From NCBI GenBank assembly GCA_041661645.1, contig JBAZUA010000001.1, positions 45,618-109,617 on the forward strand: 64,000 nt of DNA, in the 5' to 3' direction. Each line of letters opens with the position of its first letter. The stretch's first letter is position 1. Shown piece after piece: positions 24,155-46,720 of this stretch. Position numbers and translations under genes: made by a program. Source of the DNA: Minisyncoccota bacterium. GTDB taxonomy: Bacteria > Patescibacteriota > Minisyncoccia > Phycocordibacterales > UBA6065. The notes under the pieces are model-generated. The model was given only the letters and a program-made list of their open reading frames with translations, searched no databases and had not been told where the DNA came from.

Positions 24155-25393
24155 TTATTTGACCGTGTTCAGTATTTCTACCGCCTTTGCCATCTGGGGG
24201 TCCTTCTTGGCCTTTATATCGGCATCCGTGACCGGAACGACATAGTCAGGGGTGATTCCCTCGTGAGAGATCGACCTGCCGTTTGGGGTGAGCCATCGCG
24301 CAACGGTAACCTTGAGAGATGTATCCGAAGTGATCGGCACGAGCTCCTGGACCGACCCCTTGCCGAAGGTCTTGGCGCCAACGAGCTTTGCCACACCCTG
24401 TTCGGAAAGGGCGCCCGCGAGGATTTCCGATGCCGAGGCGCTGCCACCGTCGACAAGGATGACCATGCGGAGCTTGTCGGTGAATATGTCATAGCCCTTG
24501 CTGCGATACTCCTTGTCCTCGGCCTTGCCCTGAGACTCCTCGCGAACGATCATCTTTCCCGTGGGAAGGAACCAGCTGGCCATATCCACGGCCGCGTCGA
24601 GATATCCGCCCGGATTGCCGCGAAGGTCGAGGACGAGCTTGGTATCGCCGGAATCAACAAATTCCTTGAGGGCATTCCTGAAGAGATTTGCCGAACTTGC
24701 GCTAAAGCTGTAGAGGGAGATGGTGAAAATGCCGTCCTTGTCGTCGGTCTTGAGGGTGGGTATGTCTATGATGTCTCGGATAATGCTGAGGACGAAGGGC
24801 TGGGCGATGCCGTCACGGGCGAGGGTGAGCTTGACCGAAGTCCCGCTTTTGCCGCGGATGAGCTTGACCGCCCGGTCGGTCGACATCGAGAGGGATTCAA
24901 CGTCATCAATCCTTACGATGAAGTCGCCAGCCTTGACGCCCGCAGCCTCGGCGGGACTGCCCTTGATGGGAGAGACGACGGAAAGCTTGCCATCCTTTAT
25001 GCCCACCTCCATGCCGACTCCGCTGAAGCTGCCGGCTATCTCGCTTTTGAATATCTCGGCCTCCGCTGGCGGGAAGAACACGGTGTACGGATCGCCAAGG
25101 GACTCGGTCATGCCCTTGATTGCGCCCCAGACCCTGTCCTGAGAGGAGGCCAGGGTTGATGTCGAACTGGTCGAGTTGCTGGAGAACTTGTCGTCGAGTA
25201 TCTTCCAGGCCTTCCAGAAGGTGGCGAAGTCGACGCTGTCCATCTTGCCGTCCTTGTTGATGACGTTCTGGACCAATGACTCGGCAGGAACCGACCTCAC
25301 GCCGAATTTGAAGCCTGCGAAATACGATGCCCCGACCAAGACGACCAGCACCGCCGCCGATACTATGCGCTTTGATGAATTCATGGACGCCAT
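24155..25393 (-). CDS. ctpA: carboxy-terminal processing protease (S41 family, PDZ-containing)
   Basis: N-terminal anchor, PDZ region, tail-specific protease core with …GNPGG… and …DGGSASASEI… motifs; start choice 25393 vs 25384 is uncertain. Confidence 0.85.
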   Translation of the reverse strand: MASMNSSKRIVSAAVLVVLVGASYFAGFKFGVRSVPAESLVQNVINKDGKMDSVDFATFWKAWKILDDKFSSNSTSSTSTLASSQDRVWGAIKGMTESLGDPYTVFFPPAEAEIFKSEIAGSFSGVGMEVGIKDGKLSVVSPIKGSPAEAAGVKAGDFIVRIDDVESLSMSTDRAVKLIRGKSGTSVKLTLARDGIAQPFVLSIIRDIIDIPTLKTDDKDGIFTISLYSFSASSANLFRNALKEFVDSGDTKLVLDLRGNPGGYLDAAVDMASWFLPTGKMIVREESQGKAEDKEYRSKGYDIFTDKLRMVILVDGGSASASEILAGALSEQGVAKLVGAKTFGKGSVQELVPITSDTSLKVTVARWLTPNGRSISHEGITPDYVVPVTDADIKAKKDPQMAKAVEILNTVK

Positions 25394-25421
25394 TATACTA
25401 TAGGGACCACCCGAATTACAT

Positions 25422-26791
<1,370 letters not shown>

Positions 26792-26792
<1 letters not shown>

Positions 26793-27460
26793 TGAAATCG
26801 CGTGCCTTCACACTCATCGAACTCCTGGTCGTCATATCGATAATCAGCCTTTTGGCGTCCATAGTCATCTCATCCCTCGGCTCAGCGAGGCTCAAAGGCC
26901 TGGAGACATCAATAAAATCAAATCTACGCAGCGCCATAAACGCGCAGGAACTCGAATATGACAAGGCGAGCCCAAACACCTATGCCGCGGGATCAATCGC
27001 TCCCGCGGCCCTGTCCGGAATGCTTCAGGCCATCGATACTGCGGGTGGCACCACCGGATACTATAGCCGAGACGGCACGAGGTGGGCGGTCTCTGCCAAA
27101 CTAGACTCAAACACCCAAAAGAACTGGTCTGCGGACGGATCAAGCGTCGTGTCGTGGGACACGCAGGACGTGAACGTATCCGGGGCTTTTGTCTCATCGG
27201 GCGTGAAGATGAACTGGGTCACTGCCGTATCCGCCTGCGCGCTTTCGAGAGGGCGACTGCCGACAATCGAGCAGCTAGAGTCACTATTCCTGGCCCACAA
27301 CTCGCAGGTCCCCACTGCTTTTCTGCCCAGCTCGTATTGGTCAAACACCAGTGGCCTCGGCAACAATACCGCGTATTATATAAACCTGAACAACAACGTA
27401 ATACTAAGCTCCAACAAGACATCTTCGCTCTTCAAATATTACGTCCGCTGCGTTCGTTAG
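26792..27460 (+). CDS. prepilin-type (type IV pilin-like) protein with C-terminal DUF1566 (Lcl-like) domain
   Basis: N-terminus MKSRAFTLIELLVVISIISLLASIV (class III signal / N-methylation motif). C-terminus …RGRLPTIEQLESLFLAH…YWSNT…YYVRCVR matches the DUF1566 hallmark (WRLPT…EL…L … RCVR). The ATG shares its A with the cysS stop TAA (…TAATG…). Confidence 0.7.
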
Positions 27461-27464
27461 GGAA

Positions 27465-28340
27465 TCATCTCGACGCGACTGTCGGTAGACCCTCGGATTC
27501 GATGGCATACAATGCGCCGATTTCGGTCGCCGTGAGCGTCTTCGCGTAAAGGCGGACCTTGGTGATATTTCCTGTGAGGTAACCCGTCGTACCCCCGGCA
27601 GAGGCACCCGACAATAGCGGGCCGTTCAAATTCAGATTTCCCGCCATCCCGCTAATGCTGAAATTAGAGACGCTTGTCGCGGTGCCGTTTATGTATATGC
27701 TTACCACATTGGCGCTTCGATCAACGACCATGGCCAAGAAGGTCCATCGATTGAGCGGTATTTTCTGTGAGGTACTGAAGCTCTTGTTGGTGCCGGCCGA
27801 ATCTATCATCATCCCCGCCACGTTGCCGTTGCAGTTCATGCCCAGGGCCATGCGTACGGGGTTACCCCAGCTCGAGAGAACATTCACGTTGTGCGAACAG
27901 GAAGGGTTTGCGGTCGGGTAGATCCAGCCGGCGACCGTGAGGTTGCCCGTGCCGAGCTGATATGCGGGCACGTTCGTGCTGCCTCCCGCGTATGTTATCG
28001 GTGCCGTGCCGTTCATGACTATCGAGCAGCCCTGGTTATTGGGACTCATGTTTGACCAGGATATCCCCGACGCGATCGCGCCGCCGTTACCATAGCCCGA
28101 CCTATCTGACATGGTCACGCCTGAACACTCATTGAAATCCCACATGCCCACCGCCTGATCACCGGCGACGCCATCAAGAGTCTGCGCGAATTGGAGCCCG
28201 GCGGAGATGCGGGCCCTGTCTCGGGCTGAATTGAGCGTGGAAAGCACGACCGAGGACAGCAAGGAGATTATCGATATGACGACCAAAAGCTCGATAAGGG
28301 TGAATCCTTGATAGCGTGTCGTGGTTTCTGGATACATCAT
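27465..28340 (-). CDS. prepilin-type protein with C-terminal LamG-like (ConA-like lectin) domain
   Basis: N-terminus …QGFTLIELLVVISIISLLSSVVL; C-terminal …GNITKVRLYAKTLTATEIGALYA… typical of Laminin_G_3-type domains. Confidence 0.7.
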   Translation of the reverse strand: MMYPETTTRYQGFTLIELLVVISIISLLSSVVLSTLNSARDRARISAGLQFAQTLDGVAGDQAVGMWDFNECSGVTMSDRSGYGNGGAIASGISWSNMSPNNQGCSIVMNGTAPITYAGGSTNVPAYQLGTGNLTVAGWIYPTANPSCSHNVNVLSSWGNPVRMALGMNCNGNVAGMMIDSAGTNKSFSTSQKIPLNRWTFLAMVVDRSANVVSIYINGTATSVSNFSISGMAGNLNLNGPLLSGASAGGTTGYLTGNITKVRLYAKTLTATEIGALYAIESEGLPTVASR

Positions 28341-28387
28341 GGATGGCTGATATTATAACACCGCTAGTGCATGATATAATCTTTTCC

Positions 28388-29209
28388 ATGCGGACTATTT
28401 CTCGAAAGGGCTTTACCCTCGTTGAGCTCCTGGTCGTCATATCGATAATCAGCCTCCTCGCAAGCACCGTCCTGTCAACCCTAAGCGGCGTCCGAGACAA
28501 GGCTCGCGTGGCCGCGGGAAGGGAGTTCAACGCGATCGTCTATCACACCATAGGCGATATGGCCGTGGGCGTCTGGAGCTTCGATGAGTGCTCGGGAACG
28601 GCAGTGTCCGACACGTCGAGTTTGGGGAACAACGGAACCGTTGGATCGACGCTCTGGTCGAGCGACACGCCAACAGGATCGGGCTGCTCCCTCTCGTTCT
28701 CGACCTCCTATGTCAGCGTCGGCACATCAAACATGCCGAACATAGAGTCACCAAAGACCTTTAGCGTGTGGATAAAATACAACGGCGTCCCTGGCGGGAG
28801 CACGATCAACCTCTTTGCCGGCGGAAGCAACTCGATACAAATGGGCTTTAGCGGCGGAACGGCATTCAGGGTCTGGAAATATGGCGGATCGGCGCTCGTC
28901 AGCCTGCCAAGCCTCTTCTCTTCCGGCGTCTGGCATCAGGTAGTCTACACGTATGACGGGACGAATCACATACTCTATCTAGACGGAGCGGAAAAAGCCC
29001 GCTCGACGAGCGTCTCGGGACAAAGCGGTCAGACCGTAAGCGCCTCACTGGGCGGATCCGTATACGACAACCTGATAGGCATGCTCGATGACGCACGCGT
29101 CTATTCCTCAACCATTTCAGCGCAGGAAGTCGGAAGGCTCTACGCTGACGGACTATCGGCCCATCGTCCCATGGCGGACATTTCAACACTCATCCGGCCG
29201 AAGATCTAG
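28388..29209 (+). CDS. prepilin-type protein with C-terminal LamG-like (ConA-like lectin) domain
   Basis: N-terminus MRTISRKGFTLVELLVVISIISLLASTVL; C-terminal …LDDARVYSSTISAQEVGRLYADGL (LamG_3-like). Confidence 0.7.
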   Translation: MRTISRKGFTLVELLVVISIISLLASTVLSTLSGVRDKARVAAGREFNAIVYHTIGDMAVGVWSFDECSGTAVSDTSSLGNNGTVGSTLWSSDTPTGSGCSLSFSTSYVSVGTSNMPNIESPKTFSVWIKYNGVPGGSTINLFAGGSNSIQMGFSGGTAFRVWKYGGSALVSLPSLFSSGVWHQVVYTYDGTNHILYLDGAEKARSTSVSGQSGQTVSASLGGSVYDNLIGMLDDARVYSSTISAQEVGRLYADGLSAHRPMADISTLIRPKI

Positions 29210-29219
29210 GTTGAAACAA

Positions 29220-29975
29220 CTATTTTCGAGAATCCCCTTTTATCGTCGCGATCGCCTCCTGTACGGTGGTCATGAACTGTGCCGGGAATATAATCGTGGA
29301 GTTTTTCTCGGTGGCGATCTCGGACATGGTCTGAAGGGTACGCAGCTGAAGGGCGACAGGATGGAGGGCTATGATGTCTGCGGCCTCACCCAATTTGACG
29401 GCGGCTTGGAACTCGCCCTCTGCGGCAACTATCTTCGCGCGGCGCTCCCTTTCGGCCTCGGCCTCTTTTGCCATGGCCCTCTGCATGTTGTCGGGAAGGA
29501 ATATATCCTTTATCTCGACGGCGGTCACCTCGGCTCCCCACGGCTCGGTATGCGCGTCTATCACATCCTTTATCTGGACGTTAATGTCGCCAGTCTGGGA
29601 AAGCAGCTGATCGAGCGAGAATCGTCCGACGATGTTTCGCACCGTGGTCTGGCTGATCTGATTCACCGCATCATACACATTCTCGATGGCGATGACGGAT
29701 TTCTGAGGATCGACGATCTTATAATACGCCACAGCGGCAATGTCTATCGAGACATTGTCCTTGGTGATTATCTTCTGCGAGGGAATGTTCATGGTGATGG
29801 TGCGCAGGGTGACCTTTGTCATCATCTCGAGGATTGGGATGAGGATGATGAGGCCCGGACCACGCACCCCCGTACACTTACCAAGAAAGAATATGACCCC
29901 TCGATCGTATTCCTTTACGACCTTGAGCGAGAGGGCGAGCAAGATGACGATAACGACTGCGATAATGGTGATCAT
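29220..29975 (-). CDS. SPFH/Band 7 (stomatin/prohibitin-like) membrane protein
   Basis: N-terminal TM, then …[14 protein letters not shown]… and a long Ala/Glu-rich coiled coil typical of the stomatin family. Confidence 0.85.
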
Positions 29976-29999
29976 GATGTTTAAAGTATATATCAGTTC

Positions 30000-31448
30000 C
30001 TAAAAGACTTCGAGAACGTCGCCCGACAGGCTATCCAGGATTTTCTGACGCTCCTTGCCCAAGAGTTCCGCCGCCGTATCGACGGACACGCTCTCCGCCA
30101 TGAGATAGTCGCGTGTTGCGTCAGAGGGATTGACTACATATGCGTCATACTCGTTCTTCTTTCTGGTCCAGAGGTCGACTTGCGCCTGATAGGCCTTGAG
30201 TCGCACGTCATTGTCCGCCTGAAGCTTTCCGAGGACCTTCTGTTGATAGGGGTCAAGCTTCGCCACGGAGCCGTCATAATCGATCAGGAAGACGCGAAAG
30301 GCATATGATATCGATTTGAGGGAATCGAATGCCTTGGCGATGTTCTGCGCGGCCGCCTTGAGCTTGATGGCATAGAGCCTCGGTATCTTATCCTCCGTGT
30401 CACTGTTGAGCTTGCCGTTGAAATAGTCAAAGGAATTCTTCCCGGTGACGCTGTCGACGGCGAACTTGATCGAGTCAGACTGATTGATGTTGGCGTAGAG
30501 TCCGTCAAGATATCCGCGGAAGAGAACCTCTACCGCCGTCTTGTCCTTCTTGTCCTTATAGAGCTTCATGCCCTGGACAAGCAACGGGACCCTCGAAGGA
30601 AAGAGGTTCGTCGTAATCGTATATTTGAGACAGGTCTTCCCCTCCTCGAGCACCTTGCAGGCAAACGAGCCCGACATGCCGATAAGGCCACCCTTTGCGC
30701 TGATGAGGGCGCTGCCATTGTCAAAAGGCCTGCTGTCGCTCGTGGCCTGCATCGATGACGATGTCTTCTGGGTGACGATAGCCGAGACGAGAGACAGACC
30801 CGTGGACTGGGATCCGGGAAAACCTACTACGTAGACGCCATCGCCGACCGCCGACGCGCTGCCATAGTTCAGGGAAAGGTATGAGGAGGACTTTTTGTCG
30901 GAAAGCTGGAGCACAGCCAAATCGTTTGCCTCTTCGAGGCCAACCAGAGTTGCCCTCTTCGTCACGCCGCTCGAGAGGGAGACGTTTACAGAGGTGGAGG
31001 TGCCCATGACATGAAAGGCTGTCAGTATGTGCCCTTGGGCATCGATGATTGATCCGGCGGCGCTCGAAGAGGCACCAATCACGAGGACGATGGATGGCCT
31101 GACCTTTGCCAGAATGTCCTTTGACGCGAGGTTAGCGCCCGAGGATGCAGAAGGGGCCGCAGGGGTGGGCACGGATGCTGACACAGCCGATGGCTTTGCC
31201 CCCGATTGGGCTTTCTCCAGATCCTCCCGGGCACGATCAAGCTTGAGCTCAAGCTCGGCAATCCTCCTATAGAGATCGTCTGTCGTGGGCAGTGACGAGA
31301 GGTCCGCCACGCTTGTCGATGCCGTAGTCGAGGCTGTCGCCGGGGTCGTTCTGGCGTTCTTCCAGGTGAACGGATTCCACCAGGCGGCGGAAGCCGTAAG
31401 GGGCAGAAAAGTGAGGCTTAGGAGCGCCAGGACTATCGCTTTCTTCAT
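30000..31448 (-). CDS. secreted trypsin-like serine protease domain protein with coiled coil and large C-terminal domain
   Basis: Signal peptide MKKAIVLALLSLTFLPLTASA. …GHILTAFHV… (His), Asp region, …GGLIGMSGS… (Ser) arranged like the S1 family. C-terminal ~200 aa unassigned. Confidence 0.6.
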   Translation of the reverse strand: MKKAIVLALLSLTFLPLTASAAWWNPFTWKNARTTPATASTTASTSVADLSSLPTTDDLYRRIAELELKLDRAREDLEKAQSGAKPSAVSASVPTPAAPSASSGANLASKDILAKVRPSIVLVIGASSSAAGSIIDAQGHILTAFHVMGTSTSVNVSLSSGVTKRATLVGLEEANDLAVLQLSDKKSSSYLSLNYGSASAVGDGVYVVGFPGSQSTGLSLVSAIVTQKTSSSMQATSDSRPFDNGSALISAKGGLIGMSGSFACKVLEEGKTCLKYTITTNLFPSRVPLLVQGMKLYKDKKDKTAVEVLFRGYLDGLYANINQSDSIKFAVDSVTGKNSFDYFNGKLNSDTEDKIPRLYAIKLKAAAQNIAKAFDSLKSISYAFRVFLIDYDGSVAKLDPYQQKVLGKLQADNDVRLKAYQAQVDLWTRKKNEYDAYVVNPSDATRDYLMAESVSVDTAAELLGKERQKILDSLSGDVLEVF

Positions 31449-34500: not shown

Positions 34501-35895
34501 ATGGGATACAATGACCCCATGAAAAGAACCGGCGACCACATACGCGTCCCACCTCAGTCCATCGAGGCCGAGCAAGCCCTCCTGGGCTCCATCTGCCTGC
34601 GACCCGAGGCAATCCACGACGTCACCGACGTGGTGAAGGAAGAGGACTTCTATTCCGAGAAGCATCGCATCATCTGGACCGCCTGCCTCGAGCTCATGCA
34701 AAAGAGCGAGCCGATCGACATCATCTCCCTCTCGGCCAGGCTCAAGGACAAGGGCCAGCTCGACCGCATCGGCGGAAGCTCCTACATTTCCGAGCTTGTC
34801 CAACTCGTGCCATCGGCATCAAACGTGCGCCACTACGGCGGCATAGTCCAGAAGAAGAGCATGATGCGACGTCTCATCGAGGCCGGCGAGCACATCAGCC
34901 AGTCGTCCTTCGAGGAAGAGGGCGAGCTCGAGGAGATCATCGACCGCGCCGAGAAGAAGCTCTTCGACGTGACCAATTCCGTGGGAACGCACAAGTTCAT
35001 CCAGATCAAGGACACCCTCGGCGAGGCCTGGGACAGGCTCGACCGCCTGCACAACACCAAGGACGAGCTCCGCGGCGTGCCGACGGGATTCCCCGCCCTC
35101 GACAACAAGCTCTCGGGATTCCAGAAGTCCGACCTCATCATCCTCGCCGCGCGACCTTCCGTCGGAAAGACTTCGTTCGCCCTCGACATAGCCCGCAAGG
35201 CCGCCGTCGAGCACAACATACCCGTGGGAATATTCTCCCTTGAAATGTCCTCACAGCAGCTCGTCGATCGAATGCTCGCCGCCGAGTCGCGCGTCGACGC
35301 CTGGAAGCTCCGCACCGGAAAGAACCTCTCGGTCGAGCATGACTTCAGCCGCATCCGCGACGCCATGGACAAGCTCTCGAGAGCACCCATCTACATCGAT
35401 GACTCGCCGGGCAACAACATATTGAAGATGCGGGCCATCGCCCGCCGCCTCAAGTCCGAGAAGTCCCTCGGCCTCATCATCGTCGACTACCTTCAGCTCA
35501 TGACCCCGATGAACTCGGCCAAGGATAACGTGGTGCAGCAGGTCACCGAAATCTCCCGCTCCCTCAAGAACCTTGCTCGAGACCTCGAGGTTCCCGTCAT
35601 CGCCCTCTCCCAGCTCTCCCGAGCCGTTGAGGCCCGAGGAGGCAAGCCGCGACTCTCCGACCTCCGAGACTCTGGCTCGATCGAGCAGGACGCCGACGTG
35701 GTTATGTTCATCCATCGCGAGAAGGACGAGTCTGGCGACCAGGCCCGCAGCCGCGAGACGACTATTCTCATCGAGAAGCATCGAAACGGACCGACCGGCG
35801 AAATCCAGCTCGTCTTCGATGCGGACAAGGCGACATTCCTCTCTGTCGAGAAGGCGGACTTTGGGGATTTCAATGCGGGAGGGGGTGGATTCTAA
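34501..35895 (+). CDS. dnaB: replicative DNA helicase
   Basis: N-terminal DnaB domain (…PPQSIEAEQALLGS…); RecA-like core with Walker A ARPSVGKTSFAL and Walker B …IIVDYLQLM…; ~464 aa. Confidence 0.9.
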   Translation: MGYNDPMKRTGDHIRVPPQSIEAEQALLGSICLRPEAIHDVTDVVKEEDFYSEKHRIIWTACLELMQKSEPIDIISLSARLKDKGQLDRIGGSSYISELVQLVPSASNVRHYGGIVQKKSMMRRLIEAGEHISQSSFEEEGELEEIIDRAEKKLFDVTNSVGTHKFIQIKDTLGEAWDRLDRLHNTKDELRGVPTGFPALDNKLSGFQKSDLIILAARPSVGKTSFALDIARKAAVEHNIPVGIFSLEMSSQQLVDRMLAAESRVDAWKLRTGKNLSVEHDFSRIRDAMDKLSRAPIYIDDSPGNNILKMRAIARRLKSEKSLGLIIVDYLQLMTPMNSAKDNVVQQVTEISRSLKNLARDLEVPVIALSQLSRAVEARGGKPRLSDLRDSGSIEQDADVVMFIHREKDESGDQARSRETTILIEKHRNGPTGEIQLVFDADKATFLSVEKADFGDFNAGGGGF

Positions 35896-35898
35896 AAA

Positions 35899-36667
35899 AA
35901 TGAAAATAATCACCCTTAACACCTGGGGCGGTCGAGCGGGAGCGAAGAATCTCCTTTCCTTTTTCGATGCACACAAAGACTCCGTCGACGTGTTTTGCCT
36001 CCAGGAGATATGGTCTGCTGAGTACCCTCAGAACGAGGGACGTCCCGCCGGAAGCATTCCAATAAAACTGTCGGACATACAGACCAGGGGCCTTCAAGAG
36101 ATAACCGCCGTTCTTTCGAACCATGTCCCCTATTTCAGACCACACTATGGAGATAATTACGGTCTTCTCATGCTCGTGCGAAAAGATATCAAAGTATTAG
36201 ATGAGGGAGAACTCTTCGTCCACAAACATAAGGGATACGCGCCAACGGAAAACGCAGGCCTTCATGCCAGGAACATACAATACATAACATTGAAAGAAGG
36301 CGGCGAAACACTAACCGTGATCAATTTTCATGGTCTCTGGAACGGCAAAGGAAAGACTGACAGCGAAGATCGATTAATCCAGTCGAAAAACATTCTTGCC
36401 TTCACCAAGACCTTGAAAAACGAGTTCATCCTCTGTGGCGACTTTAACCTCCTGCCTGATACAAAGAGTCTCTCCATGTTTGAGGAAGACGGGCTCAGAA
36501 ACCTCATAAAGGAACATGGAATAACCTCCACCAGAACATCTTTCTACCCCCACCCTGTCAGATATGCCGATTACGTGTTCACCACCAAAAATCTAGCGGT
36601 CAAAGAATTCAGAGTTCTTCCCGAGGAAGTTTCTGACCACTCGGCAATCCTTATCGAAGTGAAATAG
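35899..36667 (+). CDS. endonuclease/exonuclease/phosphatase (EEP) family protein
   Basis: MKIITLNTWGG…; FCLQEIW, …GDFNLLPD…, …SDHSAILIEV motifs typical of EEP hydrolases. The long upstream ORF extension overlaps dnaB and is not coding. Confidence 0.75.
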
Positions 36668-36687: not shown

Positions 36688-37320
36688 ATGGACAGCCTCA
36701 ACCGCCTTCACGACCTCTTCAAGCAATTCCCCGGCATAGGGCCGAGGCAGGCAAAGCGCTTCGTGTACTTCCTCCTCAACTCCCCCGAGGGGCTCAAACA
36801 GGCGCTCGCCAGGGAGATTCTCGAGCTCGCCTCGCATGTCTCGAAATGCTCGTCGTGCCATCGCTATTTCGACAGGAAGCGCATGGACAATGACCTATGC
36901 CTCATCTGCCGGGACGACTCGCGCGATGCGGCATCGCTCATGGTCGTGGCCAAGGACGTGGACCTCGACGCCATCGAGAAGAGTCATGTCTACAGCGGAT
37001 TCTATTTCGTGCTCGGCGACGCGCTTTCCCTCATCGAGAAGGATCCGGAGTCGAAGATTCGCACCGTCGAGCTTCTCGAGACGATCGAACGGCGATCGAC
37101 GACGGGACTCAAGGAAATCATCCTCGCCCTGTCCCTCAACAGCGAGGGCGAGCATACCCGCGAGTACGTCGAGAATCTCATCTCCCCTCTCGTGAAGTCA
37201 AAAGGGATAAAGATATCGATGCTGGGCCGAGGCCTCTCGACCGGAACCGAATTGGAGTATTCCGACGCCGAAACTATCAAGAACGCGCTCCTGAGCAGGA
37301 AGCAGGAGGTCATCGTCTAA
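36688..37320 (+). CDS. recR: recombination protein RecR
   Basis: N-terminal HhH (…FPGIGPRQAKRFVYFLL…), C4 zinc finger (CSSCHRY…CLICRD), Toprim domain. Confidence 0.9.
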   Translation: MDSLNRLHDLFKQFPGIGPRQAKRFVYFLLNSPEGLKQALAREILELASHVSKCSSCHRYFDRKRMDNDLCLICRDDSRDAASLMVVAKDVDLDAIEKSHVYSGFYFVLGDALSLIEKDPESKIRTVELLETIERRSTTGLKEIILALSLNSEGEHTREYVENLISPLVKSKGIKISMLGRGLSTGTELEYSDAETIKNALLSRKQEVIV

Positions 37321-37431
37321 CGGAAAATCTTTAGAATTATTTTATTTGACCGAAGAAACTAATCTGATAGTATTGAGACACAAACGGCTTCGGCCCGACC
37401 TTGTCGCGAGTCAAGGGTAAAAATGAGAAAT

Positions 37432-37896
37432 TCAAGGTATCAAAGCCTTGAATTTTTCTTTCAACACCGAATATTCTGATATAGGCAAAGTGCCCACCTT
37501 GTATCCCAGACGCCTACCATCAATCAATCTGACCTGAGACAGGATGGCCCGACTTTGAATGCCCGGAACGAAAGAAAATTCAAAATAATAAACACCAACC
37601 CTGTCGCTCAGGCTCTTGTTTGATTTAGTCAGTGGCACAGCCCAAAAGATGTCATGGTTAAACTTCCTGAGTATGATGACGGGCCTAAGGAAATCGGGTC
37701 CCTTGCCGTCCTGCTCAAGACCCACATTTGCACCCATATACACAAACCAAATCTCCCTCTCATGAAAGAGGGGTCTTGATCTCGACGCGTCTATCGACCT
37801 CTTCTTTTGGTGCCATGTATCGAAATCTTTCCCCATCCCGTTATCATACAAAAAGGAGCATGAAGAGACGCTAAAGAAAATATAAAAAGGAACCAA
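37432..37896 (-). CDS. PemK/MazF-family endoribonuclease-toxin-like protein with N-terminal extension; no adjacent antitoxin gene
   Basis: …REIWFVYMGANVGLEQDGKGPDFLRPVIILRKFNHDIFWAVPLTKSNKS…AILSQVRLIDGRRLGYKVGTLP… aligns well with MazF/EndoA/Kid (GxEQxGxRPxxVI…VxPxT…ID.RRL). Probable start at 37836 (MGKDF…); a hairpin overlaps the 3' end. Confidence 0.65.
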   Translation of the reverse strand: MVPFYIFFSVSSCSFLYDNGMGKDFDTWHQKKRSIDASRSRPLFHEREIWFVYMGANVGLEQDGKGPDFLRPVIILRKFNHDIFWAVPLTKSNKSLSDRVGVYYFEFSFVPGIQSRAILSQVRLIDGRRLGYKVGTLPISEYSVLKEKFKALIP

Positions 37897-37916
37897 AACC
37901 GAGGCGCCACAGAAAC

Positions 37917-39506
37917 CTACGGCACCTCCTCCGCCACAGGCAGTCGCACGATGAACTCGGCACCCTTGCCCAAGCCCTCCGAGACCGCCTGGATTGTGCC
38001 CCCATGCCTCTCGATGATCTGGCGGGCCATGAAAAGGCCGACGCCCATACCCTCGGTGTCCGACGTCTTGGCCTGCTTGCTCCTGAAGAACTTGCTGAAG
38101 ATGCGAGACATATCCTCCTTCGATATGCCGATTCCCGTATCCCTGATGCGAACGACGATGAATCGCCCGTCCTGCTCGGCGGAGAATGATATGGAGCCTC
38201 CCGCCGGGGTGTACATCAAAGAGTTCTCAACGACGGTCTGGAAAGCGAAGTTCATGCGGCGCAAGTCGATGGAGACGAAGGGCAGGTTCTGGGGGCAGGT
38301 CGCCGACAGGCTGATGTTCTTGTCCCTGACCAGCTTCTGCAGGCTTGACGCCGCCCTATCGAGCACCGAGCACATGTCCACCCGCTCGGGTGAATAGGAA
38401 TAATGCGCCTCGTCCGACTGCTTGAGGCTGACCAGGGTGTCCGTGAGCTCGACAAGAAGCTCGTTCGCACTATCGATTTCCTCAAGGGCCGCCGCGGCAT
38501 CCTCGTCACCGCCCTTCCCTGCGATGCTCTTCTTGAGCATCTCGGATGCCCACCTGATGCGAGTCAGCGGGGTTCGGAACTTGTGGGTGACTATGGTGAT
38601 GAACTCGTACTTCAGCACGTCTATGTCGCGCGTCTTCTCCCAGACGAACCCCCCGACGAGCACGGCGATCATGGAAGAGACGATAGGCAGGGCCCATGAC
38701 GGCATCCACGGATACGCGGTGGCGGCTATGTCCTGCGCCGAATTTATGCCCGCGATGAGAAGACCTCCCACGGCGACCAGGACGCCGTATACCAGGGACT
38801 TCTTCGCCACGACCTTGACCTCCATGATGTCCGAGCGGATGATTCCATATGCAAGAGGCAGGACGTAGAGGCTGAACGGTATGGCGTAGAGGGGGTCGAG
38901 GGGAATGTCGAAGACGAGGACGAACGAGACGCTTCCCAAGGGGAGGCCTATGGCAATTGCCCAGATGTAATAAAGGAGACTCTCGCGCTCCAAAGGCTCA
39001 GCCTTTCTATATGAGAGAATTACCTCGAAGAGACAATATGCCCCGCAGAGCATGAAAAAGGCGACCATCGCCCAATAAAGGAAGCCGGGCTGATAGTAGT
39101 TCGGGAGGTAGAGCTTTGGAATCGATGGGTGAAGGAAGGCGGATGGGTTCGCCATGAAATAGAGAATGAAGCCAGCGACGACTGAATAGAGACCGACGAG
39201 GATGCCCGACCTCTTCTGATCCTTCCCGAGCGTTGCCAGTATCCAATGAACAAGGAAGGCGGCGATGAAGAAGACGGAAAGATCGCCCATGAGAATGCTC
39301 CTCGAGACCTCGGGATCGGGCGCATTGATGCCCAGGATGTGTGTTATCTGAAAGGTCGCAACAGATATGCTCAGAAAGAGGAATATGACGTGAAGAGTCT
39401 TGTGCCTCCCCTTCAGATAGACGGCAAAGCCAAAAATGAGGGTGAGCACGAAGGAAAAAGCGTATGCGACGTTGAGTATTGTCAGGGATATGTTGGTCGA
39501 ATTCAT
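37917..39506 (-). CDS. sensor histidine kinase with multi-TM (about 7-8 helices) sensor domain; no response regulator adjacent
   Basis: H-box …FITIVTHKFRTPLTRIRWASEML…; HATPase_c N/G1/G2 boxes (…NSLMYTPAGG…DTGIGI…GMGVGL…). Confidence 0.85.
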   Translation of the reverse strand: MNSTNISLTILNVAYAFSFVLTLIFGFAVYLKGRHKTLHVIFLFLSISVATFQITHILGINAPDPEVSRSILMGDLSVFFIAAFLVHWILATLGKDQKRSGILVGLYSVVAGFILYFMANPSAFLHPSIPKLYLPNYYQPGFLYWAMVAFFMLCGAYCLFEVILSYRKAEPLERESLLYYIWAIAIGLPLGSVSFVLVFDIPLDPLYAIPFSLYVLPLAYGIIRSDIMEVKVVAKKSLVYGVLVAVGGLLIAGINSAQDIAATAYPWMPSWALPIVSSMIAVLVGGFVWEKTRDIDVLKYEFITIVTHKFRTPLTRIRWASEMLKKSIAGKGGDEDAAAALEEIDSANELLVELTDTLVSLKQSDEAHYSYSPERVDMCSVLDRAASSLQKLVRDKNISLSATCPQNLPFVSIDLRRMNFAFQTVVENSLMYTPAGGSISFSAEQDGRFIVVRIRDTGIGISKEDMSRIFSKFFRSKQAKTSDTEGMGVGLFMARQIIERHGGTIQAVSEGLGKGAEFIVRLPVAEEVP

Positions 39507-39516
39507 GTGAGACTGT

Positions 39517-40521
39517 TTATCGCCTCGGTTTGCGGGCGATCGCTGCCTTTGCCGCGGCCTTTATATGCGAGGATCCCATGCCGTAATGCTCGACGAGCTC
39601 GGACGGGGTTCCCGACTGTCCGAACCTGTCATGGACGCCGATGAACTCGATCGGCACGGGACATTTTGCCGCGAGGAGCTCGGCAACGGCACTACCCATG
39701 CCTCCCGCCACCTGATGCTCTTCGGCGGTGACGATGGCGCCGGCCTCCTTTGCCGCGCGGACGATAGCCTCCTCATCGAGGGGCTTTATGGTGGCGAGAT
39801 TGATGACGCGTACCCCGATTTTCTCCCTTTCGAGTTCGCGCGCGGCGACGAGTGCCTTGTGAACCAAGGCGCCCGTGGCGATGATGGCGACATCAGGCTT
39901 GCCTGTTATGGGCTCGAAGAAGGTCTGTGCCTTCCCTATCGCAAACGGCGACGCATCGGTGGTCATGACAGGCGTCTTGTCGCGAATGAGACGTATGTAA
40001 ACGGGTTTGTCGGTCTTTGCCGTGGCGAGGGTCGCCTTGCGGGCCTCGATCGAGTCGCAGGGAGATATGACGGTCATGTTCGGCATGGCGCGCATGAGGG
40101 CGATGTCCTCGATGGCCTGATGGGTTCCCCCGTCGGGGCCGACCGATATGCCGGCATGGGAGCCGACTATTTTTACCGGCACGTCATTGTACGCGATGGT
40201 GGTGCGTATCTGCTCCCAGTTTCGTCCGGGCGAGAACATGGCATACGAGGTTATGAAGGGAATCTTCCCCATCGCAGCCATTCCCGAGGCGACGGTGGCA
40301 AGATTCTGCTCGGCCACGCCCATCTGGACGAAGCGCTTGGGGAACTTGTCGCGAAAGAGATTCATCTGGGTCGAGTCCGTGAGGTCGGCGCAGAGCCCGA
40401 CAACGTTATCATCCGCCTCACCCGCCGCCAAAAGCCCAAGGCCGAACCCTTTGCGTATCGGCACCTGTTCGACGTCCTTGTCGAATAGCTTTGGATTGAG
40501 TTTTTGTGAGGGGCTGAGCAT
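39517..40521 (-). CDS. transketolase, C-terminal (pyrimidine-binding + C-terminal domain) subunit
   Basis: 334 aa; …LCADLTDST…FVQMGVAEQNLATVASGMA… and …GSHAGISVGPDGGTHQAIEDIALMRAMPNMTV… are typical of TktB/split-transketolase C subunits. Confidence 0.85.
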   Translation of the reverse strand: MLSPSQKLNPKLFDKDVEQVPIRKGFGLGLLAAGEADDNVVGLCADLTDSTQMNLFRDKFPKRFVQMGVAEQNLATVASGMAAMGKIPFITSYAMFSPGRNWEQIRTTIAYNDVPVKIVGSHAGISVGPDGGTHQAIEDIALMRAMPNMTVISPCDSIEARKATLATAKTDKPVYIRLIRDKTPVMTTDASPFAIGKAQTFFEPITGKPDVAIIATGALVHKALVAARELEREKIGVRVINLATIKPLDEEAIVRAAKEAGAIVTAEEHQVAGGMGSAVAELLAAKCPVPIEFIGVHDRFGQSGTPSELVEHYGMGSSHIKAAAKAAIARKPRR

Positions 40522-40555
40522 AAAGCCTTTTTATTATACCATCACCGCCCGAGGC

Positions 40556-40804
40556 CTATAGGATAATCTTCACGAGCGCGACGAGGCCGACAATGATCCA
40601 CACGACGTTAAGCGTCGCGGGCTGATAGTTCTTCTTGTGCACGGAGACGACGAAGATGCCGAGCGCCGCGGTTATGTTTATGAGCTGATATGTCAGACCG
40701 TCGACGGAAAGGAATCCGAAGCTTGAGAGGGCGTATGCGGCGATCAGCCCGATCGCCCCATACCACCCGAACGCCTCGATGGCGATGTTTCTTTTATTGT
40801 TCAT
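40556..40804 (-). CDS. small membrane protein (83 aa, ~3 TM), hypothetical
   Basis: Start MNNKRNIAIEAFGWYGAIGLIAAY… overlaps the end of the upstream zinc-ribbon ORF; the longer 119-aa ORF extension is Arg-rich and unlikely to be coding. Confidence 0.4.
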   Translation of the reverse strand: MNNKRNIAIEAFGWYGAIGLIAAYALSSFGFLSVDGLTYQLINITAALGIFVVSVHKKNYQPATLNVVWIIVGLVALVKIIL

Positions 40805-40955
40805 TGTTTTTCTTAAGTAAGACCAGCCTCTCGTAGCACGCCTTGCAGACATGGTCCTTCTTGGCCATGCCGTTTGCGTCGGGAGCACTGAAAAGAAGCG
40901 CGCCGTAATCGACAAGCTCCTCTCCGCAGAAATCGCATGTGGGGTTTATTGCCAT
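40794..40955 (-). CDS. small zinc-ribbon protein (53 aa), hypothetical
   Basis: Not in the ORF track (<60 aa). Hand translation MAINPTCDFCGEELVDYGALLFSAPDANGMAKKDHVCKACYERLVLLKKNNEQ* shows CxxC…(24)…CxxC. Begins 2 nt after the stop of the upstream gene. Confidence 0.4.
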   Translation of the reverse strand: MAINPTCDFCGEELVDYGALLFSAPDANGMAKKDHVCKACYERLVLLKKNNEQ

Positions 40956-40956
40956 A

Positions 40957-41268
40957 TTATAGAATCTTAGATCTCGCCTGTTCCACCCTCATCCTCCTCA
41001 ACCTTCGTAAGACGAATATGTTACGGATTATCGAATAGAACGCGGCGGCGAAGGATATGAGGATCAGGGGCGCGAAGACTGGAATCGGCGACATGTTCCT
41101 GAATTTTGTGAAAAGCTCCCCATTTCCATGCGTCACGGCCACGTAGACTAAAGCGGCAATGAATCCAGCACTGTAGATTATCAACAAGGAAAGGATAACT
41201 CGCTGCGGCCACCTCACTATTTTGAAGGGCTTTATGACGGCGCCCGCATTTGTGTTCGTAGGTATCAT
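40957..41268 (-). CDS. small two-TM membrane protein (103 aa), hypothetical; ATGA-coupled to the transketolase N-subunit gene
   Basis: Start MIPTNTNAGAVIKPFKIVRW… whose ATG overlaps the TGA of the upstream tkt-N gene (…CATATGA… on the minus strand). Confidence 0.4.
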   Translation of the reverse strand: MIPTNTNAGAVIKPFKIVRWPQRVILSLLIIYSAGFIAALVYVAVTHGNGELFTKFRNMSPIPVFAPLILISFAAAFYSIIRNIFVLRRLRRMRVEQARSKIL

Positions 41269-42116
41269 ATGTGTGATTTCGCCTCCCTCAATTCGCGCAG
41301 GGCCATCTCCCCTTCCTCCTTGCTCGGCGGCTTGCCGTGCCATTCGTACTTGTGCTCGAACTCGGCGACGCCCTTGCCCGGTATGGTATGGGCCATGATG
41401 CAGGTCGGCCTCTCGAAGGTCGCGCGGGCCCTCTCGAAGGCGTCGGCTATTTCCTCCATGTTGTGCCCGTCTATCTCGATGACGTTCCAGCCGAAGGTGA
41501 TGTACTTGTTCACGAACGGCTCAAGGGGCATGATGTCCTCAGTGTTGCCGTCTATCTGTATGTTATTGCGGTCCACGACGCAGACGAGGTTACCCAGCTT
41601 CTCCTTGCCCGCAAGCATTATGGCTTCCCAGGTATTACCCTCGTCATGCTCGCCGTCGGAGGTCAGGCAATAGATGCGCCTTGACGTCGACTTGCCGCTA
41701 TCGATCCTGTCGGCGAGGGCCATGCCCACGGCCTGGGAGAGGCCCGAGCCGAGCGGTCCGGACGAGGTCTCGAGCATCGGGAGGAAATCCCGATGCGGGT
41801 GCCCCTGCAGGCGAGAGCCGAATTTACGCAGGGTCAGAAGCTCCTCCACCGGAAAGTATCCCGCATGGGCCATGCTCGAATAGAGGACCGGGCAGATGTG
41901 GCCGTTCGAGAGGACGAGCCTGTCACGGCCGTCCCATTTCGGATTCTTCGGATCATGCTTGAGGGTGTGAAAATAGAGCACGGTGAAGATATCCGCCATG
42001 CCGAGAGGCCCAGCGGTGTGTCCCGAACCCGCCTCTACGAGCATCTCTATGATCGACTGGCGAATATCATTCGCCTGAAGCTCGAGGTCCCGTGTCTTTT
42101 TGCTTGAGAGGGCCAT
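41265..42116 (-). CDS. transketolase, N-terminal (TPP-binding) subunit
   Basis: 283 aa; …GSGHTAGPLGMADIFTVLY…, …DRLVLSNGHICPVLYS…, …GSLGQGLS…, …CLTSDGEHDEGNTWEA… match the TktA N-subunit. Confidence 0.85.
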   Translation of the reverse strand: MALSSKKTRDLELQANDIRQSIIEMLVEAGSGHTAGPLGMADIFTVLYFHTLKHDPKNPKWDGRDRLVLSNGHICPVLYSSMAHAGYFPVEELLTLRKFGSRLQGHPHRDFLPMLETSSGPLGSGLSQAVGMALADRIDSGKSTSRRIYCLTSDGEHDEGNTWEAIMLAGKEKLGNLVCVVDRNNIQIDGNTEDIMPLEPFVNKYITFGWNVIEIDGHNMEEIADAFERARATFERPTCIMAHTIPGKGVAEFEHKYEWHGKPPSKEEGEMALRELREAKSHI

Positions 42117-42146
42117 TGAATGTATGTGATTATTCTATCACGCCGA

Positions 42147-42848
42147 CTAGAGCGCCTTGAACTGCTGAAGTGTCTCCAGGATGTTGTGCGAGGCGAACAG
42201 GGCCGATCCGACGACCAGCCTGTCAGCGCCGGCATCCACGAGCATCCTGCCCGTCTCGAGACTCACTCCCCCGTCAACGGATATGACGAGGTTGGGATGG
42301 GCCAGCCTCAATGCCGAGATGAGCGCAAGCGAACGCGGGTCGAAAGGCTGGCCCTGATGTCCGACCTTGGCTATGCCCATGACCTGGACGAAATGGATCT
42401 GTTCGACGATGCCGGCGACGATGCCCGCATCGGCGGTGCTGTCGAGGGCGATGCCGAGCTCGATGTCGAACGGTCCGAGCTCCTCGGACTTTTTTCCAAA
42501 GTCAGCCAAGATACCCTCGAGCTCCTCGTCAGTGACGCTTGCCCTATGCACGACGATGCGCGAGGCACCAGCCGATATGAAGTCGGGGATCTTCCCTTGA
42601 ACGTATTTGGTCATGAGGTCGAACTCGATGTTGGCATCCTCCCAGTGAGGGAGCGCCCGATTCTGGTCAATGATGTCCTGGAATATGTCGTCATGATCAC
42701 CCTTGAGGTACGGCCAGGTGCGCGATGACGTGTATCCGCCGTCGCAGACGTCCACCTGTACCACAGGCGCGTGCGCGGCGATGAGCTCGAGCTTTTCCTC
42801 GAGCTCGGCATATGACTTTGGGAGTATCGCTGGGATGATTTCGGCCAT
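42147..42848 (-). CDS. rpe: ribulose-phosphate 3-epimerase family (TIM-barrel) protein
   Basis: …IIPAILPKSYAELEEKL…VQVDVCDG…, …VISVDGGVS… matches RPE-like (beta/alpha)8 barrel motifs. Confidence 0.75.
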   Translation of the reverse strand: MAEIIPAILPKSYAELEEKLELIAAHAPVVQVDVCDGGYTSSRTWPYLKGDHDDIFQDIIDQNRALPHWEDANIEFDLMTKYVQGKIPDFISAGASRIVVHRASVTDEELEGILADFGKKSEELGPFDIELGIALDSTADAGIVAGIVEQIHFVQVMGIAKVGHQGQPFDPRSLALISALRLAHPNLVISVDGGVSLETGRMLVDAGADRLVVGSALFASHNILETLQQFKAL

Positions 42849-42873
42849 GGGATTTGATGCGCCTCTCGCGGGG

Positions 42874-43329
42874 TTACTGGTGAATTATGTTATAGAGCTT
42901 CTGTATGCGCCTCTTGTGCCTCTCGTCGCCCGAGAAGGCCGTGCCGATCCACAGCGTTGTGGCCCTAAGGGCCTCTTCAGGCGATAGGAACCTCGCCCCG
43001 AGGGCGAGGACGTTCGCGTCGTTGTGCTCGCGCGACAGCTTCACAATGTCCATATTGCCGCCATAATAGACCGCTGCCCTGACACCATAGAACTTGTTGG
43101 CGCAGATGGCCTCACCCTGCCCAGACCCGCCGATGACGATGCCCCTGACGAGGCTCGGCTGATGCGAGACCTCCTTGGCGACGAGAGAGATGAAATCGGG
43201 ATAGTCGTCCTCGGCATCATAAGATTTCGCGCCAAGGTCACGCACGTCATGTCCCTCAAGGGAGAGCCTCTCGAGGAGGAATCTCTTCAGCTCGAAACCG
43301 GCATGGTCGCTTGCGATGAATATCTTCAT
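42874..43329 (-). CDS. rpiB: ribose-5-phosphate isomerase B
   Basis: MKIFIASDHAGFELKRFL…GIVIGGSGQGEAICANKFYGVRAAV… typical RpiB/LacAB. Confidence 0.85.
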   Translation of the reverse strand: MKIFIASDHAGFELKRFLLERLSLEGHDVRDLGAKSYDAEDDYPDFISLVAKEVSHQPSLVRGIVIGGSGQGEAICANKFYGVRAAVYYGGNMDIVKLSREHNDANVLALGARFLSPEEALRATTLWIGTAFSGDERHKRRIQKLYNIIHQ

Positions 43330-46236: not shown

Positions 46237-46458
46237 ATGACAACCATCACCATACCCATAAACGACAGCCTCAACGACTTCGTGAACGAACAGGTTAGGA
46301 TCGGCAACGCCTCGAGCAAGGCCGACCTGGTGAGACGCGCCATACAGAAGATGAAGGAGGATGAATTTGTGCAGATGGTTCTCGCCGCAAAAAGGGAGAT
46401 AAAGGATGGAAAGATCCTCAAGGGAGACTTGGACCAGCTGGCTAAGGGCTTCGAATAG
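46237..46458 (+). CDS. ribbon-helix-helix (ParD/CopG-like) antitoxin candidate
   Basis: 73-aa ORF immediately upstream of and abutting a RelE/ParE-like ORF; AT-rich promoter-like sequence at 46185-46230. Confidence 0.55.
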   Translation: MTTITIPINDSLNDFVNEQVRIGNASSKADLVRRAIQKMKEDEFVQMVLAAKREIKDGKILKGDLDQLAKGFE

Positions 46459-46459
46459 C

Positions 46460-46720
46460 ATGCTGGAAATCCGATACGCGCCAAGCTTCGTGCGCATGTA
46501 CGCAAGACTCCCTGCCAGCCTCAAATCAGAGATTAAAGAGAAAATCTCGACATTCAGGGACAAGGGCAATCACGATGCGCTCAAGGTTCACAAGCTCAAA
46601 GGAAACCTTGAAAACACCTTTTCCTTTTCAGTCAATTATAAAATCAGGGTCATCTTCGAATACGAGGACAAGAAATCCGTCAACCTGCTTTTGGTCGGCG
46701 GACACGACAACGTATATTAA
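46460..46720 (+). CDS. RelE/ParE-family type II toxin candidate
   Basis: MLEIRYAPSFVRMYARLPASLKSEIKEKI…YKIRVIFEYEDKKSVNLLLVGGHDNVY fits the RelE/ParE fold pattern; hairpin terminator at 46721-46748. Confidence 0.6.
   Translation: MLEIRYAPSFVRMYARLPASLKSEIKEKISTFRDKGNHDALKVHKLKGNLENTFSFSVNYKIRVIFEYEDKKSVNLLLVGGHDNVY

Follow-up and report, generated by a model that had tools for sequence, protein, structure and literature searches.

To our knowledge, MazF toxins are textbook type II toxins that are always discussed together with protein antitoxins (MazE, PemI, Kis). RNA antitoxins are found in type III systems (ToxIN, CptIN, TenpIN), where a Kid/MazF-related endoribonuclease toxin stands beside an adjacent structured RNA antitoxin and a terminator relates the transcripts. 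In type I systems of the convergent kind, such as par fst/RNA II of pAD1 and the B. subtilis pairs bsrG/SR4 and txpA/RatA, the toxins are small hydrophobic peptides and the RNAs act by base-pairing. We know of almost no regulatory RNAs or toxin–antitoxin systems that have been characterized in the candidate phyla radiation (CPR, Patescibacteria). Here we analyze a 64,000-nt stretch of DNA from a Minisyncoccota bacterium (assembly GCA_041661645.1, contig JBAZUA010000001.1, positions 45,618–109,617, forward strand), hereafter the window, which carries a MazF/PemK-family toxin gene with no protein antitoxin gene at its side. A first-pass annotation of the window had drawn attention to this gene as a solo toxin downstream of a sensor histidine kinase. 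Our comparison of homologous loci points to a partner at the other end of the gene, where a convergent small structured RNA is encoded that is probably its antitoxin.

The comparative set consists of 86 loci that were picked through homology to the MazF-like protein (first round) and that amount, together with the window, to 862 kb. When such regions were aligned, the element directly after the toxin stop codon proved nearly invariant, though the proteins are only 52–60% identical. The 14-mer GTCGGGCCGAAGCC is present as an exact, single copy on the identical strand and at the identical position in 48 of the 86 loci, and it also occurs once in the window. Clustering of neighboring genes returned a spurious cluster of six small opposite-strand open reading frames (ORFs), which is the translated RNA element. 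When all 94 regions downstream of the toxin genes are read along the toxin strand they follow a common plan: the stop codon is succeeded by a T-rich tract, a hairpin with a variable stem, a GGC-CGAA-GCC hairpin and ATTTGTA, and then, after about 8 nt, by a TATA-rich box and, about 17 nt further on, GTCAA. On the opposite strand, 90 of 92 loci have a sigma-70-type promoter (TTGAC[AT]-N16-18-TAnnnT) aimed at the toxin gene, and the distance from its −10 box to the first hairpin is 12 nt in 74 of 85.

The RNA predicted in the window consists, in order, of ACAAAC, hairpin P1, CGA, hairpin P2, an A-rich linker, the terminator hairpin UUCAAGG-UAUCAAAG-CCUUGAA and a U-tract. Its 5′ end corresponds to a near-invariant 17-nt segment, ACAAAYGGCUUCGGCCC, that includes the UUCG-capped P1; 74 of 81 RNAs have this loop sequence. 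P2 shows compensatory changes at six of its seven pairs among 74 aligned sequences, with 38 distinct 5′ arms and loops that are mostly GCAA, GAAA or GUAA. The terminator hairpin includes the toxin stop codon (TGA, 37432–37434) and roughly the last seven codons; T-rich tracts lie on both of its sides, and it is therefore a bidirectional terminator common to the two convergent transcripts. This overlap with the 3′ end of the toxin gene also explains why the protein has a conserved C-terminus (...LKxKLKALLP) and a near-universal TGA stop codon. In the 74-sequence alignment 94.5% of the cells are paired, as compared with 83% in column shuffles and 28–52% when the partners are slid against each other. 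Compensatory double changes are seen at 13 of 18 pairs and in 157 cells, against 49 expected, a value that none of 500 shuffles equaled. RNAalifold independently recovers P1 as well as the terminator helix, most of whose pairs show compensatory changes; of the 18 pairs that it predicts 14 are compensated, and it misses P2 only because two stem-length classes are misaligned.

Several observations assign this structure to the small-RNA strand. The ratio of G-U to A-C combinations, 71 to 15 overall and 54 to 7 in the terminator helix, favors it, and the window RNA has a folding z-score of −4.45 on the plus strand versus −1.63 on the minus strand. UUCG and GNRA tetraloops appear only on the RNA strand, the loops on the toxin sense strand being unremarkable. 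Together with the convergent promoter, the tetraloops, pair counts and z-scores disfavor an interpretation of the element as a structure in the sense-strand 3′ untranslated region. A search of Rfam 15 gave no match for the RNA even at E ≤ 10, and no tRNA was found at the element. Variations on the layout occur at two loci, one with two tandem P1–P2 units, short-stem then long-stem, ahead of the terminator (L026, 6348–6478) and one with a duplicated P2 (L025, 2412–2534); both recall the repeat arrays of type III systems.

The RNA is strictly linked to the toxin gene. A covariance model of the RNA (R1) scores the window copy at 86.2 bits (E=1.5e-19), and over the 862 kb it yields 92 matches of at least 36 bits, all of them on the opposite strand at the 3′ ends of MazF-like genes; matches below 36 bits either read these sites on their reverse strand or are marginal. 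Among about 93 toxin genes, none is without a convergent RNA that has a promoter and hairpins. A divergent paralog (L040, gene at 3160) falls below the R1 threshold and is P1-less, and keeps the convergent promoter, a GCAA-capped hairpin and the terminator. Away from MazF-like genes, R1 gives weak matches of 27–29 bits at three places (L004, 10056–10155; L065, 5154–5226; L043, 6456–6531), one of them beside an 89-aa ORF, which are perhaps unrelated terminators or remote relatives of the RNA.

The same linkage is seen in the reverse test, in which metagenome contigs were scanned with the RNA 5′ motif ACAAAYGGCTTCGGCCCKMCYC alone. Of the 80 loci obtained in this way 68 have a convergent MazF-like gene, or 68 of 76 given sufficient flanking sequence. 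The remaining 12 comprise four without flanking sequence, one chance match in a GC-rich gene, and seven in which an RNA is present without an intact toxin. In L144 and L149 internal deletions have fused the toxin N-terminus to the last codons while the RNA is intact, and in L100 and L097 the RNA is kept beside C-terminal toxin remnants only. This pattern of loss, in which the RNA outlives the toxin and the reverse is never seen, resembles that of an antitoxin and is what would be expected if the RNA were protective. We consider it highly probable that there is such an RNA gene and that it is linked to the toxin gene. In another of the seven (L153, about 3093) the RNA promoter, P1 and P2 are joined to a different terminator and converge on a HicA/HicB pair, with no MazF-like gene present, which may reflect replacement of the MazF-like gene or a new use of the RNA.

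The protein encoded opposite the RNA was described by the first-pass annotation as a clear MazF/PemK-family member, and this is borne out. Its ORF exceeds the threshold of Pfam PF02452 (PemK_toxin) with 25.8 bits (cut-off 23.1, E=1.3e-5), which is its only Pfam match and one that nearly all listed homologs carry. A search of 5.8 billion proteins returned 370 homologs, nearly all 128–135 aa in length, and their alignment begins at the ATG at 37836. This gives a protein of 134 aa (a gene of 405 bp), and the 154-aa ORF from the TTG at 37896, a mechanical maximum, is too long. As a single sequence it has no match in PDB, NCBIfam or PADLOC, and only the family profile reaches MazF structures. A profile of 41 family members aligns to MazF of B. 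subtilis, B. anthracis, B. cereus and S. aureus (E≈5e-5) and places R51 and T70 on the catalytic R25 and T48 of B. subtilis MazF, so the catalytic arginine and threonine on which the earlier assignment depended are present. R51 is invariant; T70 does not vary among the 41 sequences and has a conservation of at least 90% in a set of 110. The top Foldseek matches in PDB of an AlphaFold model are all MazF, from E. coli, S. aureus, B. subtilis and M. tuberculosis, with target-normalized TM-scores of 0.6–0.76. With the deeper alignment of 110 sequences the core of the model reaches a pLDDT of 82–93. From these comparisons, the protein looks catalytically competent.

The protein has a 5-residue insertion (KGxDF) in the β1–β2 loop. 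Its first 26 residues (MxKDFxxWHxKKxxI...RPFFHERE) form a conserved, family-specific extension in which K3, W8 and K12 are near-invariant and which is retained in divergent paralogs too. An N-terminal extension had been noticed before; its presence is confirmed, and the length of 25–45 residues given for it is reduced to about 26 aa by the homolog alignment. The AlphaFold placement of the extension was dropped, as its confidence is too low. Upstream of the gene, the extended −10 box TGTATGAT ends 6 nt before the toxin ATG, and many homologous loci have a TAnnnT box 6–10 nt before theirs. That such boxes are equally distant from the start codons in homologous loci suggests a leaderless or near-leaderless toxin mRNA, which would be monocistronic and made from its own putative promoter.

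A protein antitoxin was sought in three ways. phmmer queries with E. coli MazE, B. subtilis MazE and PemI found none among the 525 ORFs of the window, neighbor clustering found no conserved upstream or downstream small protein gene in about 90 homologous loci, and no conserved overlapping or alternative-frame ORF was found inside the toxin gene in these loci. The earlier statement that no antitoxin-sized protein ORF adjoins the toxin gene thus stands. Among the three possibilities that had been raised to account for this, an antitoxin encoded elsewhere comes closest, with the amendment that the likely antitoxin is an RNA and not a protein, and that it is encoded not elsewhere but immediately past the toxin stop codon, on the other strand. 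The window also contains a classical type II pair (46237–46720), and the genome thus uses protein antitoxins as well. The toxin of this pair is an 86-aa RelE-superfamily protein (46460–46720) with matches to the HigB-like and ParE-like Pfam models, in agreement with the RelE-family toxin previously reported at about 46.4–46.7 kb, and it is preceded by a 73-aa ORF (46237–46458) that has no Pfam match and is ribbon–helix–helix (RHH)-like by eye.

The histidine kinase (HK) upstream of the toxin gene is indeed the 529-aa multi-TM protein that the first-pass annotation described, with Pfam matches to HisKA_7TM (N-terminal), HisKA (E=5e-9) and HATPase_c (E=1e-22) and an H-box histidine within THKFRTPLT. 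It was likewise correct that the kinase has no response regulator beside it, and phmmer with five receiver queries, in a pipeline validated by an EnvZ query that recovered the kinase, found no receiver among all the ORFs of the window. What is not sustained is its proposed connection to the toxin. The gap between the kinase stop codon and the toxin ATG at 37836 measures 80 nt, not the 20 nt first given, and holds a terminator-like hairpin (37928–37901) as well as TGTATGAT; with this hairpin and a separate −10 box intervening, the co-transcription that had seemed apparent is not evident. A kinase is found within 6 kb of the MazF-like gene in two of the 86 loci, is adjacent to it in none and has the 7TM domain in none, and the closest relative of the toxin, L001 (67% identity), sits in the order rpiB-rpe-tktN-tktC-MazF-like/recR without a kinase.

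The kinase in turn belongs to a large family of about 520 aa with 1191 homologs in Patescibacteria. Three of its orthologs (L207, L209 and L211; 47–54% identity) are found in the order gap-rpiB-rpe-tktN-tktC-HK/recR-dnaB-cysS, with the kinase overlapping tktC by 4 nt in two of the three, and in these loci there is no MazF-like gene and no response regulator within 5 kb. As this synteny lacks the MazF-like gene, the kinase is the ancestral last gene of a gap-rpiB-rpe-tktN-tktC operon, with the MazF-like gene inserted between it and recR. The kinase–toxin adjacency is confined to this genome among the loci compared, an outcome that the first-pass annotation had itself named as a refutation of its reading, and to judge by gene order it is coincidental and implies no functional link to the toxin. 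The locus thus provides a caution against reading function from gene adjacency, as the module appears simply to have landed beside a kinase. The operon itself (37917–43329 in the window) reads gap-rpiB-rpe-tktN-(small membrane protein)-tktC-kinase, and the presence of a sensor kinase in a pentose-phosphate operon across Paceibacterota is unexplained. On the far side of the junction, dnaB and recR are separated in the window by an endonuclease/exonuclease/phosphatase-family gene (35573–36667); recR and dnaB are directly adjacent in L207 and L209, which makes this gene a second lineage-specific insertion at the same junction.

The module has a wide distribution. A search of 1.84 billion cluster representatives with a profile of the toxin family gave 1860 clusters at E≤1e-10, and a one-genome-per-species scan gave 547 loci, the best 80 of which are almost all from metagenome-assembled genomes of Patescibacteria, with several copies in some genomes. 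Contexts are variable, tandem copies and multiple copies per genome occur, and many copies lie amid housekeeping genes. The best reading of this distribution is that the module behaves as a mobile toxin–antitoxin cassette that is widespread in Patescibacteria. At the window locus no convincing flanking direct repeats, target-site duplication or adjacent integrase were found, adjacency to a Y1 transposase is confined to one lineage, and viral contigs searched with the RNA motif gave no match. One locus (L002, 4389–5441, which is the same as L036) has tandem MazF-like genes, each with a convergent RNA, downstream of a weak Y1-transposase-like gene; the first of its RNAs is of a divergent class with an extended P2.

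Table 1 Features of the module and its surroundings, in window coordinates.
Feature	Position	Strand	Basis
MazF/PemK-family toxin gene, 134 aa	37432–37836	−	Pfam PF02452, homolog alignment, MazF profile alignment, Foldseek
Extended −10 box TGTATGAT, putative toxin promoter	37843–37850	−	direct sequence reading; inference
Small-RNA promoter, TTGACC, 16-nt spacer, TG-extended TAGTAT	37346–37373	+	promoter scan, conservation
Small RNA, about 83–85 nt, predicted ends	37380–37462	+	folding z-score, covariation, covariance model
P1 hairpin GGC-UUCG-GCC	37386–37395	+	near-invariant in family, 5′ flank included
P2 hairpin CCUUGUC-GCGA-GUCAAGG	37399–37416	+	covariation; one U-U mismatch in window copy
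Bidirectional intrinsic terminator hairpin	37428–37455	both	terminator scan, inverted repeat, RNAalifold
7TM sensor histidine kinase, outside module	37917–39506	−	Pfam domains, synteny
Terminator-like hairpin over kinase stop codon, then GGTTTTGGTT	37901–37928	−	terminator scan, consensus match only

We propose that a self-contained module of ~540 bp (roughly 37346–37880) was inserted where the pentose-phosphate/kinase operon and recR converge. Its RNA would be transcribed toward the toxin gene from its own sigma-70-type promoter and would serve as the antitoxin of a MazF-family endoribonuclease, a reading to which we assign a probability of roughly 60%. Expression of the RNA, toxicity of the protein, its neutralization by the RNA and the mode of that neutralization are all points that we infer from sequence comparison. 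The likeliest mode would be a type III-like neutralization in which the P1–P2 domain binds the toxin protein directly, with the N-terminal extension and the enlarged β1–β2 loop as candidate surfaces for RNA contact, and the ~40-nt 3′ overlap may add antisense control of the type I kind. Complementarity between the RNA and the toxin mRNA is confined to the shared terminator, about 40 nt. Between P1–P2 and the rest of the toxin mRNA the mean duplex z is −0.12, so that pairing energies do not exceed those of shuffled sequences, and no target position is conserved; 11/12 matches of P1–P2 to the mRNA occur in 4 of 85 loci, each at a different position. Antisense pairing of the RNA 5′ domain with the mRNA was rejected, the 11/12 match in the window (37546–37557) being one that is not conserved. 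The 17-nt segment is near-invariant despite protein identities of 45–67% and has no complementarity to the mRNA, which argues for recognition by a protein and not by antisense pairing. The obvious candidate for that protein would be the RNA-binding toxin, whose gene lies 50 nt away. That the RNA binds the toxin directly is a tentative part of the proposal, for which we put the chances at about one in three.

Several considerations weigh against this proposal. The first-round loci (n=86) were all selected by protein, and the motif scan sampled only RNAs that retain the conserved 5′ sequence. Orphan RNAs are few, 4 to 6 cases. The conservation of P1 could serve RNA stability or recognition by another factor. 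The AlphaFold model has a pLDDT below 50 for residues 23–47 and of ~65 for the N-terminal helix, so that an RNA-binding surface cannot be inferred from it. The RNA is single-copy and convergent, whereas known type III antitoxins are tandem repeats located upstream on the same strand.

The leading alternative is an RNA that acts purely in cis as an antisense, in the manner of type I systems, pairing with the shared terminator and last codons so as to cause RNase III cleavage or block translation, with P1–P2 as a stabilizing element. The ~40-nt overlap includes the stop codon, and the layout resembles that of par fst/RNA II of pAD1 and of bsrG/SR4 and txpA/RatA of B. subtilis. We nevertheless consider this unlikely: the overlap does not go beyond a stable hairpin that both RNAs contain, conservation of the RNA is highest outside this overlap in a part that is not complementary to the mRNA, near-invariance of 17 nt at the protein identities given above exceeds what a stabilizing hairpin would need, and with its 134 aa and soluble RNase fold the toxin is no small membrane peptide. 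It is more doubtful still that the RNA is no antitoxin at all. It might then be a terminator or insulator cassette, or the partner or substrate of a non-toxic MazF-fold protein. Toxicity would in that case be absent, or held in check by the N-terminal extension of the protein itself. The conservation of that extension, with its near-invariant K3, W8 and K12, and the many copies among housekeeping genes would suit such a role, and the toxicity of the protein is putative. Against it, the conservation of a promoter at constant spacing speaks for an RNA that is transcribed and has a function of its own, the catalytic residues are invariant or near-invariant, and a patchy, multi-copy distribution in variable contexts, with decayed copies, does not look like that of a housekeeping gene.

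A protein antitoxin encoded elsewhere in the genome, or cross-neutralization from another toxin–antitoxin pair, is in our view quite improbable. The part of the genome that is visible is 64 kb, it contains the RelE-family pair at 46.2–46.7 kb, and a distant relative on a Nitratiruptor plasmid has an RHH-like 62-aa ORF downstream. Yet the window has no MazE/PemI/AbrB-like ORF, there is no conserved neighboring protein over about 90 loci, a mobile module that needed an unlinked antitoxin could not spread, and a strictly linked RNA would be left unexplained. The least credible alternative is a kinase-regulated RNase that is co-transcribed with the orphan histidine kinase. The two genes are adjacent on the same strand in one genome; their adjacency is unconserved in either direction, and the terminator-like hairpin and the separate −10 box stand between them.

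More distant relatives of the protein (tblastn, 23–41% identity) are found on Nitratiruptor, Helicobacter and Campylobacter plasmids (C. jejuni pVir among them) and in CJIE4 prophages, where their annotation does not go beyond 'type II toxin-antitoxin system PemK/MazF family toxin' or 'toxin MazF'. The relative on pVir of C. jejuni 81-176 (L213, 30630–31150; gene at 30630–31034 of NC_005012) has 134 aa, 31% identity and an FDxWN..KK extension, and downstream of its gene there are hairpins and then an opposite-strand TGATATAAT box. The relative on a Nitratiruptor plasmid (L212, 24558–25030) has 132 aa and the same FDxWN..KK extension, with two hairpins, an opposite-strand TATAAT box and a small RHH-like ORF downstream. 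R1 gave no significant match on the Campylobacterota relatives, and these hairpin and box leads sit in AT-rich DNA. The convergent-RNA arrangement may thus extend to Campylobacterota plasmids and CJIE4 prophages.

An RNA antitoxin is on record for pVir. In the passages that cite Shen et al. 2016 (PMC10470494, PMC7826846), cjrA/cjpT is given as a type I pair on C. jejuni pVir, and it shares with our system an RNA antitoxin on a plasmid that also encodes a MazF-like relative. A validated pVir small RNA, CJpv2, maps to 25244–25412 of IA3902 pVir (PMC5447181), where it adjoins WP_011117577/WP_014517463 and is about ten genes from the MazF-like WP_011117588. If CJpv2 is cjrA, as we assume, cjrA/cjpT is a different locus, and identity of the two systems was set aside on this ground. 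Full-text searches of the literature for MazF with Patescibacteria, RNA antitoxin with MazF, and PemK with small RNA returned nothing that describes the module, which is apparently undescribed.

In genome annotation every member of the subfamily is labeled 'type II toxin-antitoxin system PemK/MazF family toxin', which leaves them as unexplained orphans. A conserved RNA partner, if true, would account for 'solo' MazF genes by the hundreds, bring an RNA family new to Rfam, and mean that toxins of a type II family are able to change over to antitoxins made of RNA. It would also provide a compact and easily testable CPR module, made up of a 405-bp gene and an RNA of about 85 nt, and the Campylobacterota relatives are experimentally tractable.

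Two other regions of the window deserve mention. One encodes a DUF3800 protein (48426–49157; Pfam E=4e-9). In other bacteria, candidate structured RNAs are known beside genes of this kind, and an Rfam scan of the entire window, the DUF3800 region included, found no family at gathering score. The other (26792–29984) contains consecutive ORFs that start with the type IV pilin-like N-terminal motif FTLIELLVVISIISLL and has the look of a pseudopilin or pilin cluster.

Set against the known systems, the module shares with type II MazEF, PemIK and Kis-Kid the toxin family, the fold and the catalytic arginine and threonine; it differs from them in that it has no upstream MazE or PemI, an extra 26-aa N-terminus, a 5-residue β1–β2 insertion and a leaderless-looking monocistronic mRNA. 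Its likeness to convergent type I systems lies in the convergent transcripts, the 3′-end overlap with a shared bidirectional terminator and a separate, constitutive-looking promoter for the RNA. In contrast to type I toxins, which are smaller than about 60 aa, the toxin here is a 134-aa RNase fold, and the RNA has a conserved domain outside the overlap. With type III systems the module has in common an endoribonuclease-fold toxin, an adjacent structured RNA and a terminator, direct RNA–protein binding being for our system a proposal only. Unlike type III toxins, the protein is a PemK/MazF Pfam member and not ToxN/AbiQ, CptN or TenpN, with no PADLOC match, and the RNA has its own promoter and a bidirectional terminator inside the toxin 3′ end; no tandem repeats were found at 37000–38200. 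The module therefore fits the formal definition of none of the three types, since type II would require a protein antitoxin, type III a repeat array, a ToxN toxin and the same orientation, and type I a small peptide toxin. A bona fide MazF/PemK endoribonuclease that is bound by a single-copy convergent RNA, with the N-terminal extension as the dock for that RNA, would constitute a new class of toxin and RNA antitoxin, an assignment for which we think the chances are about one in three. We would be similarly cautious in proposing that this same class is widespread in Patescibacteria, in at least 547 species genomes, and that plasmids and prophages of Campylobacterota possibly carry a diverged form of it; such a class would stand between the toxins of type II and the RNA antitoxins of type III.

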